Shown: piece after piece, positions 13,508 to 61,039 of the stretch
Numbering within the stretch: the stretch's first letter is position 1
How the letters are laid out: the number at the start of each line of letters is the position of its first letter
Assembly (NCBI GenBank): GCA_963840455.1
Contig: CAWIYV010000011.1
Span: forward strand, 533,066-597,065
DNA from: Nitrospirota bacterium
GTDB taxonomy: Bacteria > Nitrospirota > UBA9217
Direction of reading: 5' to 3'
Length of the DNA: 64,000 bases
Made by a program: the position numbers and the translations under genes
The notes under the pieces: generated by a model
Database searches by the model: none
What the model saw: only the letters and a program-made list of their open reading frames with translations
What the model was told of the DNA's origin: nothing

Positions 13508-13579
13508 ATCGGAGGGAAGAACGTCAGGCGCGCGGAACTGGCAGAGAATACCGTCCTAGGTATTATGGTGTAAATTCAC

Positions 13580-13621
13580 TAACCGTTATGATATAATGGC
13601 GTTACTTGAGTAACCGTTATG
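13580..13621 (+). promoter_or_regulatory. pilin promoter region: TATAAT box flanked by two TAACCGTTATG direct repeats
   Basis: Repeat copies at 13580-13590 and 13611-13621. TATAAT at 13592-13597. The second repeat ends 10 nt before the pilin ATG. Confidence 0.4.
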
Positions 13622-15595: not shown

Positions 15596-16942
<1,347 letters not shown>

Positions 16943-17146
16943 ATCGACATTGTATCACAAGACAGGGGAAATGATGATACCGAAGAGATCGGCCGACCAT
17001 GCCCTCATTGAAGTTCCCTGAAGCAAGCTGCTAGGAATACCTCGCTCCTGGATTCAGGGGTACGACGCATGCTTTGACCTTGACCTTTCCCCGGGAGTGT
17101 CTTATCATATTTTCCATCTGACCTTGGAACGCGGAGGGAACGACCG

Positions 17147-17545
17147 ATGGGACCTGCGGCAGGAGACGACAAGACCCGGATAAGTACTCCATCAGTATCA
17201 AAACAGAAGATCCCGGCGCGGTACCAGGCTTCCGTAGTGATCGTGCAGGGATACGCCGAGGGCATGGAATATTCCGTCGACAGAACGTACGCCGTGATCG
17301 GCAGGAACAAGGACGCTGCGGTCCCGCTAAGGGACCCCCTCGCCTCGCGTGAGCACGCTGTCATCGTGTTCCATGACGGCGTTTTCGTCCTGAAGGACCT
17401 GGAGAGCACCAACGGCACGCACATGCGGGGCGCGTCCATCAGGCAGCGGAAACTGCGCCACGGCGACAAGTTCCGCGTGGGAGACACGGTCCTCCAGTTC
17501 ATCCTCCAGGACAGCGGCAGGGCCAGGACCTACGAGATCGCGTAG
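17147..17545 (+). CDS. FHA domain protein
   Basis: 132-aa product with YAVIGRNKDAAVPL...SREHAVI...STNGTHMRGASI...FRVG. Confidence 0.8.
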   Translation: MGPAAGDDKTRISTPSVSKQKIPARYQASVVIVQGYAEGMEYSVDRTYAVIGRNKDAAVPLRDPLASREHAVIVFHDGVFVLKDLESTNGTHMRGASIRQRKLRHGDKFRVGDTVLQFILQDSGRARTYEIA

Positions 17546-24831: not shown

Positions 24832-25138
24832 GGCGGGGAGTATAACATAGTCGCCCGCAAGGGGAAAAGTAAAAAAACACGCCTGCCGTCACGCGCGCCC
24901 CGCTTCCCGTGCCTGGAGACCGGAAGGATTTCCCTTGACATAATACAGGATTTATATTATCTTCATTGACAGAAGAAACGCGGCATCTGCCGCAAGGCAT
25001 CATCCGCGAGAAGCGCCACAGGGGATAGCAGATGGGCAGGGAGACAGGCTCCCTGCCCGGTTTTTTCCGTGGTCGCGTAAAAAAGAAAAGGCAGGCCACC
25101 TGACGGTGAACCTGCCTTTATTGGTTGATGGGTGGTGC

Positions 25139-25339
25139 TCAGACCTTTACGACATTCGCTGCCTTCGGGCCCTTCGGGCTGTCTTCAATGTCGAACGTCA
25201 CTGCCTGACCTTCGGCCAGGGACTTGAAGCCAGCGTCCTGGATCGCAGAAAAGTGAACGAACACGTCTGCGCCGTCCTCTGCGGCAATGAATCCAAAACC
25301 CTTGGAGTCATTGAACCACTTCACGGTTCCTTTTGCCAT
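25139..25339 (-). CDS. cspA: cold-shock protein (CspA family)
   Basis: [18 protein letters not shown]...[10 protein letters not shown], ~66 aa. AAGGAGG RBS. The ORF track extends it upstream, but the conserved start is the internal M. Confidence 0.85.
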
Positions 25340-25390
25340 GTGTGCAGAACCTCCTTCCGTGAGAATTGAAGAAGCGGAAACGTGCGTCAC

Positions 25391-25420
25391 AAAAAAACCG
25401 CAAAGATGGGATCTTTGCGG
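25391..25420 (-). terminator. intrinsic-terminator-like hairpin between the cupin gene stop and the csp start
   Basis: Plus strand AAAAAAA-CCGCAAAGAT-ggg-ATCTTTGCGG. A minus-sense RNA gives a 10-bp stem then a U7 run. Lies ~60 nt after the cupin stop and ~55 nt before the csp ATG. Confidence 0.55.
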
Positions 25421-25482
25421 CCGCGTGAACGACAAAGACTTCCGAACTTCAGTGCCGATACTCGCATATCCCCCGGCCAAAG

Positions 25483-27852: not shown

Positions 27853-28692
27853 TTGCAGTCCTGCACGGAACTATGGTACATACTCCCACTTGCCATGAAC
27901 GCTGACACCGTCGCCCAATACCGCTCCTGGTTCTCCCGCTTCGTTCAGGACCACGCTGCGCGGAACGAGCAGGACCAGCAGAACATCGCGCTGAAGGAAG
28001 AGCACACCCTTCAGGTCTGCGGCAACGCCCGGCGGATCGCCGCGGAGCTGGGGCTTGATGAACGCGCAGCCGCGATCGCCGAGACCATCGCGCTTTTCCA
28101 TGATATCGGGCGGTTCCCGCAGTACCATCGCTACCGGACCTTCCAGGACAGCCTGTCAGTGAACCACGCGGTCCTGGGCGCACAGGTCCTGCTCGAGCGT
28201 AATGTCCTCCGGGACCTTCCGAGGCTGGAGAGGTCCCTGATCGTCCGTGCCGTGGCCTTGCACAACGTTTTCGCCTTACCGCAGGGCCTCGCCGTTGAGG
28301 TCCTCCTGCAGGCAAAATTGGTCCGCGACGCGGACAAGCTCGATATCTGGCGCGTGTTCATGGAGCTCCTCGACCGGGACACGACTGACTGGCCGTCGGC
28401 CGCGGGCCTCGGCCTCCCCGATACACCGGAGCACTCACCCGGCATCCTCGACTCCCTCGAACGGCGCGAAATGGTACGGCTCACAAGCCTCCGGACCCTG
28501 AACGACTTCAAGCTGCTCCAGCTCGCCTGGATCTACGACCTGAACTTCGCCCCAAGCCTGCGCATGGTCGTCGAACGGGGTGTCATCGACCGGCTGTCCG
28601 CGACGGTGCCGCAGACCCCCGAGGTCGGGCGGGCCCTCGGGAAGCTCCGGCAGTTCGTGGCCGTTCGGCTTGCCGCCGGGACCGCGGCCTGA
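27853..28692 (+). CDS. HD-domain phosphohydrolase family protein
   Basis: HD signature ALFHDIGR...H, with a downstream DADKLD. Start uncertain (internal Met at 27895). Confidence 0.65.
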   Translation: MQSCTELWYILPLAMNADTVAQYRSWFSRFVQDHAARNEQDQQNIALKEEHTLQVCGNARRIAAELGLDERAAAIAETIALFHDIGRFPQYHRYRTFQDSLSVNHAVLGAQVLLERNVLRDLPRLERSLIVRAVALHNVFALPQGLAVEVLLQAKLVRDADKLDIWRVFMELLDRDTTDWPSAAGLGLPDTPEHSPGILDSLERREMVRLTSLRTLNDFKLLQLAWIYDLNFAPSLRMVVERGVIDRLSATVPQTPEVGRALGKLRQFVAVRLAAGTAA

Positions 28693-28800
28693 ATCCAGGA
28701 GCGAGCGCATTCCCCGTAGTTTGCTACGGGGTCAGCGAGCGATTAGAATAAAATATTACCTTGAGGATCGAAGCTCCATGCATCTTGCTTCGGGGAGTTT
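28692..28800 (+). repeat. copy 1 of a ~110-bp hairpin-containing intergenic repeat family
   Basis: AATCCAGGAGCGAGCGCATTCCCCGTAGTTTGCTACGGGGTCAGCG...CCTTGAGGATCGAAG... begins 1 nt after the HD gene. Nearly identical 5' 50 nt to copy 2. Confidence 0.85.
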
Positions 28801-28801
28801 C

Positions 28802-28918
28802 AATCCAGGAGCGAGCGCATTCCCCGTAGTTTGCTACGGGGTCAGCGGGCGATGAGAAGAACGACAACTACCTTGAGGATCGAAGATTCCCTGCAGCTTG
28901 CTGAAGGGAGCTTCAACG
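28802..28918 (+). repeat. copy 2 (tandem) of the same repeat family
   Basis: Direct tandem copy. Conserved 5' module and CCTTGAGGATCGAAG box. Divergent AT-rich centre. Confidence 0.85.
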
Positions 28919-28971
28919 CCGTCAGAAGGCCCTTCCCGGGCGTTCGGAAGCCCTTTCATTCCTTTTTTGCC

Positions 28972-29000
28972 TTGAAATCACCCGGGTGTTCTGCTATGAT
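28972..29000 (+). promoter_or_regulatory. candidate sigma-70 promoter TTGAAA-17-TATGAT upstream of the RDD gene
   Basis: Consensus-like hexamers with 17-nt spacing. GAGGAGG RBS and the ATG at 29021 follow. Confidence 0.4.
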
Positions 29001-29020
29001 GTGCGGGCCTGAGGAGGCGC

Positions 29021-37565: not shown

Positions 37566-37980
37566 GAACCACCGAATAGCCACAGAGGCACGGAGAATGG
37601 CAAGTTCATTTTCACCGCCAGGGCGCACAGGTCGCGAAGAATAATCTTTAATTCTTTGTTTTAATACAGGAACAATTAATTGCCTTCCTTGGCGTACTTC
37701 GCGCCTTTGCGGTTCCAAGGTTTTAGTTCCGGCCTGTCCGGGTTCGGTCGATTATCCAAAGAGTATCGCAGTTATCCAGTCTTATACTCCTTTCTTCGTA
37801 ACCACCTTGTCCTCTCTGTTTTTTCATTCCGCAATCATTGCTCCACACTCCTCATTCACTAATCCGGTGCTATTTTTTCAGTAGAAAGAGATTCCGAAGA
37901 AAGGAGGCGAGCACTATGAAGCGGCCCGTCAAGAAAAGCGGAACAAGCCGGAACGGGAAACACTGACCGAGGCCTACGAG

Positions 37981-38166
37981 GTGAGGGCGTTCAGGGATGA
38001 GTCAGAGGTGCCCAAGGTTATGGAAGCAGCCCTACCCGAAGTCCCGCCTGCAGAGCCGGGTGCGCTGCAGGCCATTAAGAAGACGGCCAAGGGACATGGC
38101 GAGCAGACGGTCCTGCCTGATGACTGCCAGTTCGGCGACAATGACCTGTGCTATGTAGATGCGTAA
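37981..38166 (+). CDS. small hypothetical protein (61 aa, GTG start) with a C-terminal CQFGDNDLCYVDA
   Basis: ORF in an AT-rich island. A 16-aa ORF (37916..37966) with a perfect AAGGAGG RBS precedes it in another frame. Confidence 0.3.
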   Translation: MRAFRDESEVPKVMEAALPEVPPAEPGALQAIKKTAKGHGEQTVLPDDCQFGDNDLCYVDA

Positions 38167-38299
38167 GGCAGCGTGAGCTGTGATCGTTTAAGGCGGGGTT
38201 CGTTAGAAGGTGAAGGTGTGTCTATGGCATTATTATTTCCCACTACAATATAGATCAAATAATCTTAACACCTATCTACTGACTACTTCATGAAATATT

Positions 38300-38408
38300 G
38301 AAGCTCCCTAAGCTGCAGGGAATCTTCGATCCTCAAGATAGAACTATTTATTCTAATCGCTCGCTAACCCCGCAGCAAGCTACGGGGAATGCGCTCGCTC
38401 CTGGATTC
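38300..38408 (-). repeat. copy 3 (inverted orientation) of the ~110-bp repeat family
   Basis: Reverse complement reads GAATCCAGGAGCGAGCGCATTCCCCGTAGCTTGCTGCGGGGTTAGCGAGCGATTAGAATAAA...CTTGAGGATCGAAGATTCCCTGCAGCTT. Sits just downstream (in sense) of the minus-strand START-domain gene. Confidence 0.85.
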
Positions 38409-38471
38409 ACCTGAGGGCGACTTTTATGCGTGTAATCAACAGGAAGAAATCAACGTTATGATGTTGGTCTT

Positions 38472-46256: not shown

Positions 46257-46454
46257 TTCCTCTTAAGATCGCTGCAATAGTTAACCACGGACGAACACGG
46301 CACAACCTCTGTCAAGACGCTGGAACCGCCAGGGCGCAAAGGGTCGCGAGGAAGGCCGTACTATAAAAAAGCTAGTGTCCTGATCGATTTTGACGTCCTT
46401 GCGTCCTTCGCGCCTTCGCGGTGAGATGCTTTTATTTCTGTTTCCTGATTCTTG

Positions 46455-58595: not shown

Positions 58596-60338
58596 TTAGA
58601 TCGCCCCGTTGGTGGTGCTCAACTGGTTGATGAGCGTTTGCATGTTGGTCGTGGTAAGGGTTGATCTGTTCATGGCAGAACCCAGGAACGAAGTCATTGC
58701 ACTCGCCAATCCGCTGGTCCCTGCCGTGGACTGCATCATGGTACCGCCGCCACCCATCATGCCACCACCCATACCACCCATGGTTATCTGGGTGCTTCCC
58801 ATCTGACCGTTCATGATGCCGTCCGAAGCATCGTTCATCATGGACAAGATCAGGGCTGCGGGGTCCGTCATGCTGATGGTCTGTGCATACTGAGACATGG
58901 CGGCAATGGCAACGCCGTAGTTCTTCATGTCCACAGTAGCAGTACCGCCGGATCCTAGTACTGCCGCATTCATCGGGACGGTTTCAAGTATGTTGGACAC
59001 CATGAAGTAGTTGCCAACCGCCGTGTTTGCTGCCGTAATATTGGCATCAGTCATACCGCCTGCCATTGCCTGGGCACGGGCCTGCGCCATAGACGTAAGA
59101 GGAGTCATCTGAATGCCCGTGATCGTGGCTCCGCTTGAGATGGTTGGAATGACTGCGGTCATCACATCGCCGGCCGACATGGTCATGGTTGTGCCGGTTG
59201 CCAGGTTGTTATACGACCCCCCGCTCATCTTGAGCATGACCGGCCCGGAATAGGCGCCGAGGGACAGGCTGAAGCTGCCCATGCTGTTCGTGGTCCCGCT
59301 AGCCAATTGAGCGCCCAGAGAGCCGCCACTCACTGCGTATGCCATGACCGTGGCGTTGCCCATCGTTCCGTTGAAGACCGATCCGCCGACCATCCCGCTC
59401 ATCGGCGTTCCTCCGCCACTCGGAATGCTGCCGGTCGCCGAAGTAGTCAACTTGTTCATGAGCGCCGTCATGTCTCCAGCAGTTACGCCTGACTTATTCA
59501 GGGTGGAGGTCATGAACGTCGCCATTTCCGTGGCGAGCCCGCTCGTCCCCGCAGTTGTCGTCATCATGGAGCTGCCGGCCATCATTCCGCCCATCATGAC
59601 CGGGGTACCTCCCATCAAGCCGTTCATAACGCCGTCCGACGCGTCATTCATCATGGCCGTGACCATGTTGGAGGAAGAGGTCATTCCCATGTCCTTCGCG
59701 GATTGCGACATTGCCGCGATGGCCATGCCGTAGTTTTTCATGTCCTGGGTCGCGGTGCCGCTTGATCCGGACACAAGCGGGCTCATGGGTGGCGTATGCA
59801 GGATATCGTTCACGATGAAGTAATTTCCTATTGCGGTGTTTGCTGCCGTGATATTTACATCCATCATGCCGCCCGCCATATTATTTGCCATTGCCTGGGC
59901 CATGGAGGTCAGAGGGGTTACTTGAATTCCGGTAACCGTCGAGCCGGTAGATAGCGTTGTCATAACAGCGGTCATCACATCACCGGGAGCCATGGATACG
60001 GTAACGCCGGTCGCCTCATCCACGTATGTTCCACCGCCCATCTGAAGCATAATGGAGCCTGCATAGTCGCCAACTAATATATTGAAATTTCCCTGACTGT
60101 CCGTTGCTCCACTGGCGAGTTGCATGCCCATGGTCCCATTGGTGATGGCATATGCCGTTACTGTCCCTCCGCTAATCGGTCCCTTGACCGCCGTACCACT
60201 GATCATTCCGTTAGCGCCTGTTGTTCCTCCAGGAGTCGTCGCACTGCTCCCTCCTCCGCCACAACCATAAAGAAGCGACATTGACCCGATTAAGAGAGTG
60301 AGAGTTAACATTACCTTGAGTTTCTTGTGCTTTTGCAT
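58596..60338 (-). CDS. extremely methionine-rich lipoprotein with an internal tandem duplication
   Basis: Signal peptide plus LLYGC lipobox. 69 Met in 580 residues by hand count (~12%). Also Gly/Thr/Ala/Ser-rich, no Cys after the lipobox, 1 His. Two ~250-aa repeat units (GNFNILVGDYAGSIMLQM... versus GSFSLSLGAYSGPVMLKM...). Confidence 0.7.
   Translation of the reverse strand: MQKHKKLKVMLTLTLLIGSMSLLYGCGGGGSSATTPGGTTGANGMISGTAVKGPISGGTVTAYAITNGTMGMQLASGATDSQGNFNILVGDYAGSIMLQMGGGTYVDEATGVTVSMAPGDVMTAVMTTLSTGSTVTGIQVTPLTSMAQAMANNMAGGMMDVNITAANTAIGNYFIVNDILHTPPMSPLVSGSSGTATQDMKNYGMAIAAMSQSAKDMGMTSSSNMVTAMMNDASDGVMNGLMGGTPVMMGGMMAGSSMMTTTAGTSGLATEMATFMTSTLNKSGVTAGDMTALMNKLTTSATGSIPSGGGTPMSGMVGGSVFNGTMGNATVMAYAVSGGSLGAQLASGTTNSMGSFSLSLGAYSGPVMLKMSGGSYNNLATGTTMTMSAGDVMTAVIPTISSGATITGIQMTPLTSMAQARAQAMAGGMTDANITAANTAVGNYFMVSNILETVPMNAAVLGSGGTATVDMKNYGVAIAAMSQYAQTISMTDPAALILSMMNDASDGIMNGQMGSTQITMGGMGGGMMGGGGTMMQSTAGTSGLASAMTSFLGSAMNRSTLTTTNMQTLINQLSTTNGAI
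58600..60175 (-). repeat. intragenic tandem duplication (two ~0.75-0.8 kb units) inside the Met-rich lipoprotein gene
   Basis: Protein-level repeat units ~45% identical with conserved blocks (DVMTAV, TGIQ.TPLTSMAQA, ITAANTA.GNYF, DMKNYG.AIAAMSQ, MMNDASDG.MNG). Unit boundaries are approximate. Confidence 0.6.
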
Positions 60339-60386
60339 TTGTTACATCCCCCTAAATTAAACTAATTTTACTGCCATTGTGATTTA

Positions 60387-60412
60387 GACGAGGTAACGAC
60401 TAAAAGGTTACA
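60387..60412 (-). promoter_or_regulatory. candidate ECF-sigma-type promoter TGTAAC-N16-CGTC upstream of the Met-rich lipoprotein gene
   Basis: Minus-strand sequence TGTAACcttttagtcgttacctCGTCTAA. Predicted start site ~40 nt before the ATG at 60338. GGGGGA RBS follows. Confidence 0.4.
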
Positions 60413-61039
60413 AATAACTTCACGACGAGTTATTCCTTAAATATCGTCTCATCTATCTTTGAATACTGCAAAACAGGATAATTGTCGATTTCAAGCAGCG
60501 GATAGTTGAAAAAAGAGCCCACTCGACGCATGCCAGATTATTGGGATTTCCTTCGGGAAGAACAACGGCTTGACGTGATGGTATTAGGTCTACGTAAGGC
60601 TAGTTCTCTGAAGAAACTACACTCCAGTGACCAAAAATCAAATGTTGAAGGATGAGGCTCTTTCTTATCTCTTTGCCGCTTGCCTCCTCCCAGGCTAAAC
60701 ATCTGCGCCCTGCCGACTGTTTCGATGTTATGCAACTCTGTATGTTCCGACTCTGCGCAAACGAAGTCAATAATAAAAGCGAAATGCATGGATAAATAGA
60801 TTGCGACTGTTGCACATTTAAACGATGTTGTACTCGCAGTCATATATAATCGCCGCTTCCTGCCGCTATTATCGCAACTTCAAATCAGCGCAAGACAAAT
60901 CCATACATGTTTACCTGTAACCTTTTATGATTTGTTTCGTCTCATATGGCATCAACCCGGAAGAAGAATATTTTATCGGAGCTCCAAAGAAAGAATAATA
61001 TTTTTTATTCTAACGTGTTTACTGCGAGGGAGTCGCATT

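Follow-up and report, generated by a model that had tools for sequence, protein, structure and literature searches.

The closest described system to the element considered here is IS608 of Helicobacter pylori, an insertion sequence (IS) of the IS200/IS605 family. It leaves its site as a circle of the top strand, which enters new DNA 3' of the tetranucleotide TTAC with no DNA gained or lost; TTAC lies outside the IS, 19 nucleotides (nt) 5' of the left hairpin, and TCAA lies inside it, 10 nt 3' of the right hairpin (PMC3201880). The cleavage sites are read by guide tetranucleotides, AAAG and GAAT, situated 5' of the hairpin foot (PMC3201880, PMC5934647), and the guide pairs include A+16:T−3 and A+17:T−4 (PMC5934647). 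Derivatives resembling palindrome-associated transposable elements (PATEs) are a class already described (PMC10055086). Here, we analyze a non-coding element of ~115 bases that occurs in a 64,000-nt stretch of a Nitrospirota bacterium contig (CAWIYV010000011.1, positions 533,066 to 597,065; this whole stretch is called the window below). The family to which it belongs is previously undescribed and very widespread. It is multi-copy and polymorphic between close strains, inserts precisely after TGAA, and ends in TCAA.

By analogy with IS608, we read the window copies, with a probability of roughly 0.6, as decaying copies of a small non-autonomous mobile DNA element that was moved as single-stranded top strand by IS200/IS605-type peel-and-paste. 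With equal assurance, we would describe the family as new and cross-phylum, its small non-autonomous members resembling IS200/IS605 elements, with TGAA as the transposon-adjacent motif and TCAA as the terminal motif.

Insertion after TGAA and spread of the family

The behavior of the element is seen at the site between the HD and RDD genes of the window. The HD-RDD loci of relatives were recovered from wetland and sediment metagenomes by exact-protein look-ups of MreB and HD homologues, and together with the window they give an allelic series at a single site:

L118–L122 (HD protein 78% identical): 0 copies; 106-base-pair (bp) spacer reading ...GCGGCC-TGAA-C-AGCGG...
L001 (~94 to 98% DNA identity to the window): 1 copy between HD and RDD
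Window (reference): 2 copies between HD and RDD
L123 (HD protein 96% identical): 4 copies head to tail, two of them without hairpin 1

Comparison of the empty site (GCC-TGAA-C) with the filled one (TGAA-[TCCAGG...CTTCAA]-C) establishes that insertion is exact, 3' of TGAA, and leaves no target-site duplication (TSD). TGAA stands directly 5' of 98 of 103 copies, a figure that, like the family-wide counts of spacing, orientation, and covariation given below, rests on copies among the matches listed. Family-wide conservation covers the block (T)TGAA...CTTCAA(T); past positions −1 and +1, flanking sequence is random. The preference for T at these two positions (63% at −1 and 83% at +1) is read as a target preference because both are C in the empty site. 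A preference for stop codons as targets was rejected: the TGA of the target serves as a stop codon in 17 of 184 cases, not enriched over the 11 to 14 found in control frames. For copy 3, exact-protein look-ups gave no usable contig with an empty site. In substance, the 0/1/2/4-copy series and the precise insertion after TGAA are the behavior of an IS or of a transposable element of the miniature inverted-repeat type (MITE), which a preliminary description of this DNA had set against its own reading of the repeat as a functional RNA.

Within the window, the hairpin CCCCGYAG-NNNN-CTRCGGGG matches three times, at 28712–28731 (+), at 28822–28841 (+), and at 38368–38387 (read on the − strand), against an expectation of 0 from 100 shuffles. 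A repeat search of the window returned a direct pair 110 nt apart (60 nt, 95% identity) together with two inverted pairs, one of 98 nt (88%) and one of 63 nt (95%). The preliminary description had proposed a novel repeat with an 8-bp-stem hairpin, present as two tandem copies and one inverted copy that share a 5' module, an AT-rich center, a box, and a second imperfect hairpin. This picture holds: no Rfam family matches, and the three-way alignment shows a common 5' module, a variable A/T-rich center, a CTTGAGGATCGAAG box, and a second, partly degenerate hairpin. Copies 1 and 2 lie head to tail, 110 nt apart, and copy 3 is inverted, 9.4 kb away. The count of three was right for the long forms but missed a fourth, short copy at 17008–17052 (−). 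With the copy boundaries refined by comparison with the empty site, the features are as follows:

28690–28693 (+): target motif TGAA (transposon-adjacent motif) of the tandem array; its TGA doubles as the HD stop codon, and the site is empty in L118–L122
28694–28803 (+): copy 1, long form, 110 nt; covariance-model match of 65 to 82 bits
Parts of copy 1 (+): hairpin 1, 28712–28731; center box GGATC-GAAG, 28765–28773; degenerate hairpin 2, 28774–28797; terminal TTTCAA, 28798–28803
28804–28916 (+): copy 2, long form, 113 nt; covariance-model match of 80 to 94 bits
Parts of copy 2 (+): hairpin 1, 28822–28841; hairpin 2, 28889–28908 (one mismatch); terminal TCAA, 28913–28916
28917–29020 (+): original HD-RDD intergenic DNA right of the insertion site, kept in the empty-site species (alignment of the 0-, 1-, 2-, and 4-copy alleles)
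38298–38409 (−): copy 3, long form, with its TGAA (element 38405..38298, TGAA 38409–38406); covariance-model match of 90.5 bits
Parts of copy 3 (−): hairpin 1, 38368–38387; hairpin 2 with a 5-nt deletion
17052..17008 (−), TGAA 17056–17053: copy 4, short single-hairpin form, 45 nt; covariance-model match with filters off, 21.7 bits, E 0.011

Copy 2 is common to all filled alleles, being the orthologue of the single copy of L001 and of the rightmost copy of L123; copy 1 is missing in strain L001 and found in L123. The retained intergenic DNA to their right includes a promoter-like site of the RDD gene (28972–29000; promoter scan). Copy 3 sits between the convergent DUF2344 (+) and START (−) genes and is 90 to 91% identical to copies in other Nitrospirota metagenome-assembled genomes (MAGs; L056 and L077). 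Copy 4, which with its target reads TGAA-TCCAGGAGCGAG-GTATT-CCTAGCAGCTTGCTTCAGGG-AACTTCAA, has the architecture of 20 short forms in the genome scan described below and lies ~65 nt upstream of a sigma-54 activator gene (15596–16942, −). A 165-codon open reading frame (ORF; 17005–17502, −) with no Pfam match runs through copy 4, with its stop just beyond; it looks spurious, and if real, its last ~16 codons are element-encoded.

The window copies are 0.69 to 0.78 identical to one another and 0.84 to 0.91 identical to copies in other Nitrospirota MAGs. Because they are closer to copies in other genomes than to each other, they are independent old insertions and not products of local duplication. 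They are old and decaying, with hairpin 2 deleted or mismatched. The copies had also been said to bracket the mreBCD-mrdA-rodA block; the gene context is as described, but the two loci form no composite transposon, since a relative that shares this gene order has no insertion at the HD site and the two loci are independent.

The family extends far beyond the three copies first reported. A scan of one genome per species with the pattern GCGCATTCCCCGNAGNNNNCTNCGGGG found at least 112 stretches, with ~60 MAG species among the matches listed, and a metagenome scan in which the hairpin was left free (pattern AGCGAGCGCATT-N18-24-TTAGCGAGCG) found at least 120. Hosts among the matches listed are mostly Desulfobacterota (Desulfobacterales, Syntrophales, and Syntrophobacterales) and Nitrospirota, together with a few Fibrobacterota, Bacteroidales, and Nitrospinota and one contig labelled Chloroflexia. 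A single Desulfobacterales MAG carries at least 12 stretches, and up to 3 copies occur per 8-kb locus. Copies are 0.90 to 0.97 identical within a genome versus a median of 0.69 between genomes, and their comparison reveals subfamilies that follow lineages.

Neither the window copies nor the best-conserved member (L083) has a match in Rfam 15 at the gathering score or at E ≤ 10, so that no known RNA family accounts for them. A literature search by core sequence string found no paper, and phage and viral-contig sequences contained no match to the element. Plasmid matches are limited to three Ca. Manganitrophus MAG plasmids, each with a single orthologous copy. The copy on one of these plasmids (CP114557.1; L005, 1426–1547) is a diverged full-length member in which the hairpin 1 stem has changed compensatorily (CCCCGCCC/GGGCGCGGG); its hairpin 1 flanks pair as a perfect 8-bp helix (CGCGCGTC/GACGCGCG), whereas in the consensus this helix is partial and contains tandem G·A.

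Folded ends and their likeness to IS608

In its 5' half, the long form (~115 nt, two hairpins) reads (T)TGAA / 3 to 7 variable nt / AGCGAGCGCATT / hairpin 1 CCCCGYAG-CTTG-CTRCGGGG / TTAGCGAGCG / A-rich linker / TTCCTT; it continues with variable nt / (TC)GAAGATT / hairpin 2 CCCTGCAG-CTTG-CTGCAGGG / AG-CTTCAA / (T). The short form (~50 nt, one hairpin), which makes up ~18% of matches, passes from hairpin 1 directly into AGCTTCAA. The hairpins are subterminal and nearly identical; both carry the non-palindromic loop CTTG in the same orientation and are thus direct, not inverted. There are no terminal inverted repeats (TIRs), the sole inverted terminal match being TTGAA/TTCAA, whose left half is target DNA. 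Hairpin 1 has been lost between two AGCGAGCG direct repeats in some copies. Two array copies of L123 (1561–1650 and 1760–1840) lack it, the deletion running exactly between the flanking AGCGAGCG repeats, which suggests loss by slippage. One subfamily (element centers in L042, L043, L052, L070, L112, L155, L168, L171, and L186) has an extra hairpin module (TGCGAAGCACTGCCGCACGGCAGAACA or similar) between hairpin 2 and the 3' strand of P1, a long-range helix defined below.

A covariance model was built from 21 copies, with the structure specified by hand, and 89 copies were aligned to it. Standard pairs occupy 96% of cells, compared with 88% in shuffled and 35 to 52% in slid controls, compensatory change occurs in 20 of 32 pairs, none of 500 shuffles reaches any of five measures, and the covariation score is 0.253 against at most 0.053 in slid controls; an alignment fitted to the model favors the structure, but the slid and shuffled controls and the raw sequences agree. 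Hairpin 2 covaries in 7 of 8 pairs, and the lower stem GAAG/CTTC also occurs as GAAC/GTTC and AAAA/TTTT. When the search left hairpin 1 unconstrained, its basal CCCCG/CGGGG and loop CTTG were fixed and its apical three pairs covaried.

P1 joins the bases right after TGAA to those just 5' of (TC)GAAG. All four of its pairs covary, with pair types at successive positions that include CG/UA/AU, CG/UA/AU/GC, and GC/CG/UA; judged by this covariation, P1 is shown to exist. In the helices as a whole, 119 G·T pairs stand against 34 A·C mismatches, which identifies the written strand as the folding one. The preliminary description had seen such a strand asymmetry in copy 3 and ascribed it to a stem substitution giving a G-U wobble. 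The asymmetry is confirmed, but the U·G taken for a substitution is what family members most often show (44 of 88); moreover, a top strand that transposes as single-stranded DNA would account for the asymmetry just as well.

The terminal CTTC pairs with the 3' side of the central strand (...NNN-TC-GAAG...), and the target G(A)A and the first bases of the element pair with its 5' side. One strand thus pairs with both ends, and the two cleavage points would therefore be adjacent in the folded top strand; the excised junction CTTCAA-NNN would be almost fully complementary to this same strand. P1 may aid synapsis or the presentation of the cleavage sites. A bolder and doubtful proposal is that the covarying central strand, paired with CTTC on one flank and with the target GAA plus 3 to 7 initial bases of the element on the other, is a built-in guide that bridges the cut by splinting either both cleavage sites or the circle junction. 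Such a guide may be an extended IS608-style DNA guide or a gene-less omega-RNA-like or bridge-RNA-like guide for a nuclease or recombinase encoded elsewhere, and it would also explain the cross-phylum conservation of the 45-nt core.

Several measurements place the ends of the element close to those of IS608. The distance from TGAA to hairpin 1 is 19 nt in 50 copies, 18 nt in 27, and 20 nt in 5, and the terminal TCAA lies 8 nt after the foot of the apical hairpin 2, its distance to the extended stem being 2 nt. CATT (left) and GATT (right) are the tetranucleotides 5' of the hairpins. In addition to the two IS608 guide pairs given above, a third, G+19:C−1 (guide position 4 with −1), is reportedly seen in the Barabas 2008 structure. 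Applied to the consensus, these positions, the third as reported, yield C:G, A:T, and T:A for CATT/TGAA and G:C, A:T, and T:A for GATT/TCAA, and the two putative guides differ only at the position where TGAA and TCAA differ. Finally, the top strand lies on the locally G-rich strand at 108 loci versus 57 (p = 1e-4), a GC-skew bias that is confounded with gene orientation and whose direction agrees with the lagging-strand-template entry reported for the IS200/IS605 family (PMC5027513).

Because hairpin spacing, TCAA, the putative guides of the consensus, and strand bias resemble IS608, we infer that the element would be moved by peel-and-paste by a Y1 HUH transposase supplied in trans. This enzyme would bind both hairpins; its left cut would follow TGAA and its right cut TCAA, releasing a circle that would re-insert after another TGAA, preferentially on the lagging-strand template. 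Since each insertion leaves TGAA intact, repeated entry at one TGAA would produce head-to-tail arrays such as those behind the HD gene. The central strand could splint the two ends together via P1 (target GAA and first bases) and the lower stem (GAAG/CTTC), and any effect on the 3' end of the HD mRNA would be incidental.

The confounding of the GC-skew bias is one of several points that weigh against this reading. The left guide CATT was fixed by both search patterns, so the left-end pairing consensus says nothing on variation. In the GGGTTCAA subfamily (e.g., L158), the lower stem is kept by compensatory change and the GATT:TCAA pairing is broken, and the right-end guide match in the consensus may partly reflect the stem. 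The G·T excess fits RNA equally well. P1, the evidence for which is covariation, is not in the minimum-free-energy DNA fold, and we know of no description of such a long-range helix for IS200/IS605 ends. ORF clustering over 113 loci found no recurrent neighbor gene or transposase. A phmmer search with E. coli RayT, then jackhmmer, over ~1.6 Mb of loci plus the window identified four Y1_Tnp genes (L210, L124, L027, and L219); these lie 2 to 4 kb from a copy, and none is bounded by the element. Two of them (L210 and L124) have inverted repeats on their flanks, either perfect over 28 nt or 92% matched over 39 nt, that bear no relation to the element. In the ~1.6 Mb around copies, with whole genomes outside the search, we found neither a cognate Y1 transposase with the ends of the element nor a full-length element with cargo between those ends.

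The L210 (3877–4773) and L124 (11701–12797) Y1_Tnp genes are IS200-like and RAYT-like, encoding ~280 amino acids with a C-terminal extension, and they represent a separate mobile or REP-like system of the same communities. A tblastn search of the loci and window with an IS608 TnpA sequence returned nothing credible; a weak TnpA match in L072 was rejected as DNA ligase D. At L190 (150–420), a family member has a nested ~270-nt element with its own TIRs (GAGAGCTTTGCATAA...TTATGCAAAGCTCTC). The ends of this contig are inverted duplicates, probably an assembly artefact, and the apparent inverted pair was rejected as a transposase locus in favor of inverted duplicated contig ends plus a nested TIR-type MITE.

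Competing explanations

The alternative that survives best, unlikely as we consider it, is a REP/REPIN-like population kept by a single-copy domesticated Y1 transposase (REP-associated tyrosine transposase, RAYT) and not by an IS200/IS605 IS. It implies the same chemistry, with the copies as long-term, vertically inherited residents that have possible host functions, such as protection of mRNA 3' ends. The element is indeed an abundant small repeat with hairpins, located mostly between genes; the surroundings of the copies yielded no autonomous IS, RAYT-like Y1_Tnp genes occur in the same metagenomic bins, and the subfamilies follow lineages. However, the left and right ends are distinct and the hairpins direct, with no inverted REP pairs and no BIME-type alternation, and the hairpin foot has no GTAG head on its 5' side. 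None of the Y1_Tnp genes is flanked by the element, two of them having their own unrelated inverted repeats, and a near-identical core across phyla is atypical for REPINs.

Somewhat less likely again is a structured non-coding RNA encoded by the element, with copies spread by transposition. Candidate roles would be a 3' untranslated region (3'UTR) or stability element, a small RNA (sRNA) with a UUCCUU anti-Shine-Dalgarno seed, or an omega-RNA-like guide scaffold reading into the 3' flank. The strong covariation, including a long-range helix outside the free-energy fold, the excess of G·U(T) on one strand, and the conserved single-stranded UUCCUU would all suit an RNA, and PATEs are reported often to encode omega RNAs (PMC10055086). 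The preliminary description had placed the copies 3' of genes in the sense orientation, which is true of the three long window copies but does not extend to the family, where 36 are sense and 29 antisense to the upstream gene. Between co-directional genes, the split is 25 versus 12, a mild bias that can be explained by replication orientation. Orientation relative to genes is thus nearly random, which argues against an obligate 3'UTR RNA role.

The RNA-level function first proposed (3'UTR stability element, sRNA, or terminator) is further undercut by the lack of a U-tract and of a conserved promoter and by the decay of the copies, which freely lose hairpin 1 or 2 at the HD locus. No terminator-like site was found within any window copy, and hairpin 2 runs into AGCTTCAA with no U-tract, so the terminator reading was rejected. 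A sigma-70-like TTGCTA-17-TAGAAT occurs in copy 1 only (28721–28749, +), spanning the hairpin 1 loop, its 3' arm, and the A-rich linker; a conserved internal promoter was rejected, as the −10-like hexamer of copy 1 is not kept in other subfamilies. ORF clustering revealed no TnpB or IscB-like gene recurring near copies, and Rfam has no match. In sum, the element is probably not a dedicated regulatory RNA, and an exapted role, be it REP-like protection of mRNA 3' ends or a gene-less guide RNA as in some PATEs, shares the low probability of the RNA explanation.

We regard as distinctly improbable a mini-element of a site-specific or DEDD-type (IS110-like) recombinase, with crossover in the shared AA core (target TG-AA-C, circle junction TTC-AA-N) and the central strand guiding the junction. 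The absence of TIR and TSD, the specific target, and the AA common to TGAA and TCAA would fit, and the covariation of the first bases with an internal strand resembles guide-donor covariation. No such recombinase gene recurs near copies, however; the hairpin spacing and terminal TCAA match IS608 specifically, and the strand and GC-skew asymmetries fit a single-strand mechanism. The element is also much shorter than known bridge-RNA-bearing ends.

A classical DDE-transposase MITE or a local non-mobile satellite duplication, suggested by the ~110-bp size, intergenic location, and tandem pair, is scarcely credible, as there is no TIR beyond TTGAA/TTCAA (half target-derived) and no TSD, the empty-site comparison contradicts it, copies occupy hundreds of unrelated loci, and those in the window are closer to copies of other genomes (0.84 to 0.91) than to each other (0.69 to 0.78). 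Two other candidates were discarded: a CRISPR array (Rfam CRISPR-DR scores of 15 to 16 bits versus thresholds of 35 to 45, "spacers" conserved between copies, and copies dispersed singly) and an integron attC site (by eye, neither R''/R' core sites nor cassette arrays).

Window context and comparison with known systems

Pfam places the HD, RDD, and mreB/C genes on the + strand and a radical-SAM/DUF2344 gene (+) convergent with the START gene (−). Named homologues of the HD protein likewise point to a Nitrospirota host. The window genes are probably little affected by the element, whose copies would be passengers in decay, located 3' of the HD gene, between START and DUF2344, and upstream of the sigma-54 activator gene. 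The gap between the convergent DUF2344 and START genes (37566–38471), which contains copy 3, is unusually long (~900 bp) and partly AT-rich, and a 38-nt sequence at 37692–37729 is repeated at 46401–46438 (79%). Elsewhere, an Rfam cspA thermoregulator match (25086–25478, −; 84.2 bits, gathering score 78) covers the 5' leader and gene of a cold-shock protein. Three further repeats are unrelated to the element: two tandem AT-rich 30-mers at 13561–13621 (80%), an AT-rich inverted pair at 60386–60417 and 60911–60942 (493 nt apart), and a 123-nt direct repeat at 59080–59202 and 59893–60015 (72%).

If the preferred reading of an IS200/IS605-like mobile element is correct, few small mobile elements would be as widely distributed as this one among the bacteria of anaerobic sediment and groundwater (Desulfobacterota, Nitrospirota, and others), and it has so far escaped annotation. 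Its covariance model would clean up intergenic annotation in thousands of MAGs and explain contig breaks and strain-level length polymorphisms. The hundreds of subfamily variants would constitute a natural data set on single-strand transposon end recognition, and P1 would provide a concrete, testable hypothesis on end synapsis or guide function in very small IS200/IS605-type elements.

Among known systems, the Correia/NEMIS, ERIC, BOX, and RUP repeats are similar in being dispersed non-coding repeats of ~100 to 150 bp with stable secondary structure, often co-transcribed with their neighbors. Classical MITEs and mosaic repeats have TIRs, TSDs (e.g., TA), and a DDE origin, whereas the element has neither TIRs nor TSDs. 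IS110 elements with a bridge RNA share the absence of TIR and TSD, a specific target, and an internal guide-like strand that covaries with the element ends, but no DEDD recombinase was found near copies here, the element is much shorter than the bridge RNA locus, and its hairpin geometry is that of IS608.

Closer to the element are the REP/REPIN-RAYT systems (e.g., E. coli RayT), whose short GC-rich intergenic hairpin repeats are likewise very abundant, are considered to be mobilized in trans by a Y1 HUH enzyme whose gene lies elsewhere, and may protect mRNA 3' ends. REPs, however, are single palindromes of 20 to 40 nt with a GTAG head, arranged in inverted pairs or alternating BIMEs and flanking the RAYT gene, while the element has two direct hairpins, asymmetric ends, and head-to-tail arrays, and the RAYT-like genes seen are not flanked by it.

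The comparison with the IS200/IS605 family is the closest. Unlike those elements, the present one has the P1 helix, common single-hairpin short forms, and a core kept across several phyla, and no tnpA or tnpB was found with its ends; IS608 also differs in its target (TTAC versus TGAA here) and in its right cleavage site, 10 nt from the hairpin compared with 8 nt here. The likenesses are nonetheless extensive. IS608, other IS200/IS605 elements, and PATEs share with the present element its precise insertion 3' of a fixed tetranucleotide that is not part of the mobile DNA, its freedom from duplication, and its lack of TIRs; PATEs are in addition gene-less and multi-copy, as it is. As in the IS200/IS605 family, two similar subterminal hairpins lie on the same strand, structure conservation is strand-biased, and orientation has a bias that may be related to replication. 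In the consensus, the putative guides may also pair with the cleavage sites by the IS608 rule. The left cleavage spacing is 18 to 19 nt here and 19 nt in IS608, and the right end TCAA is identical.

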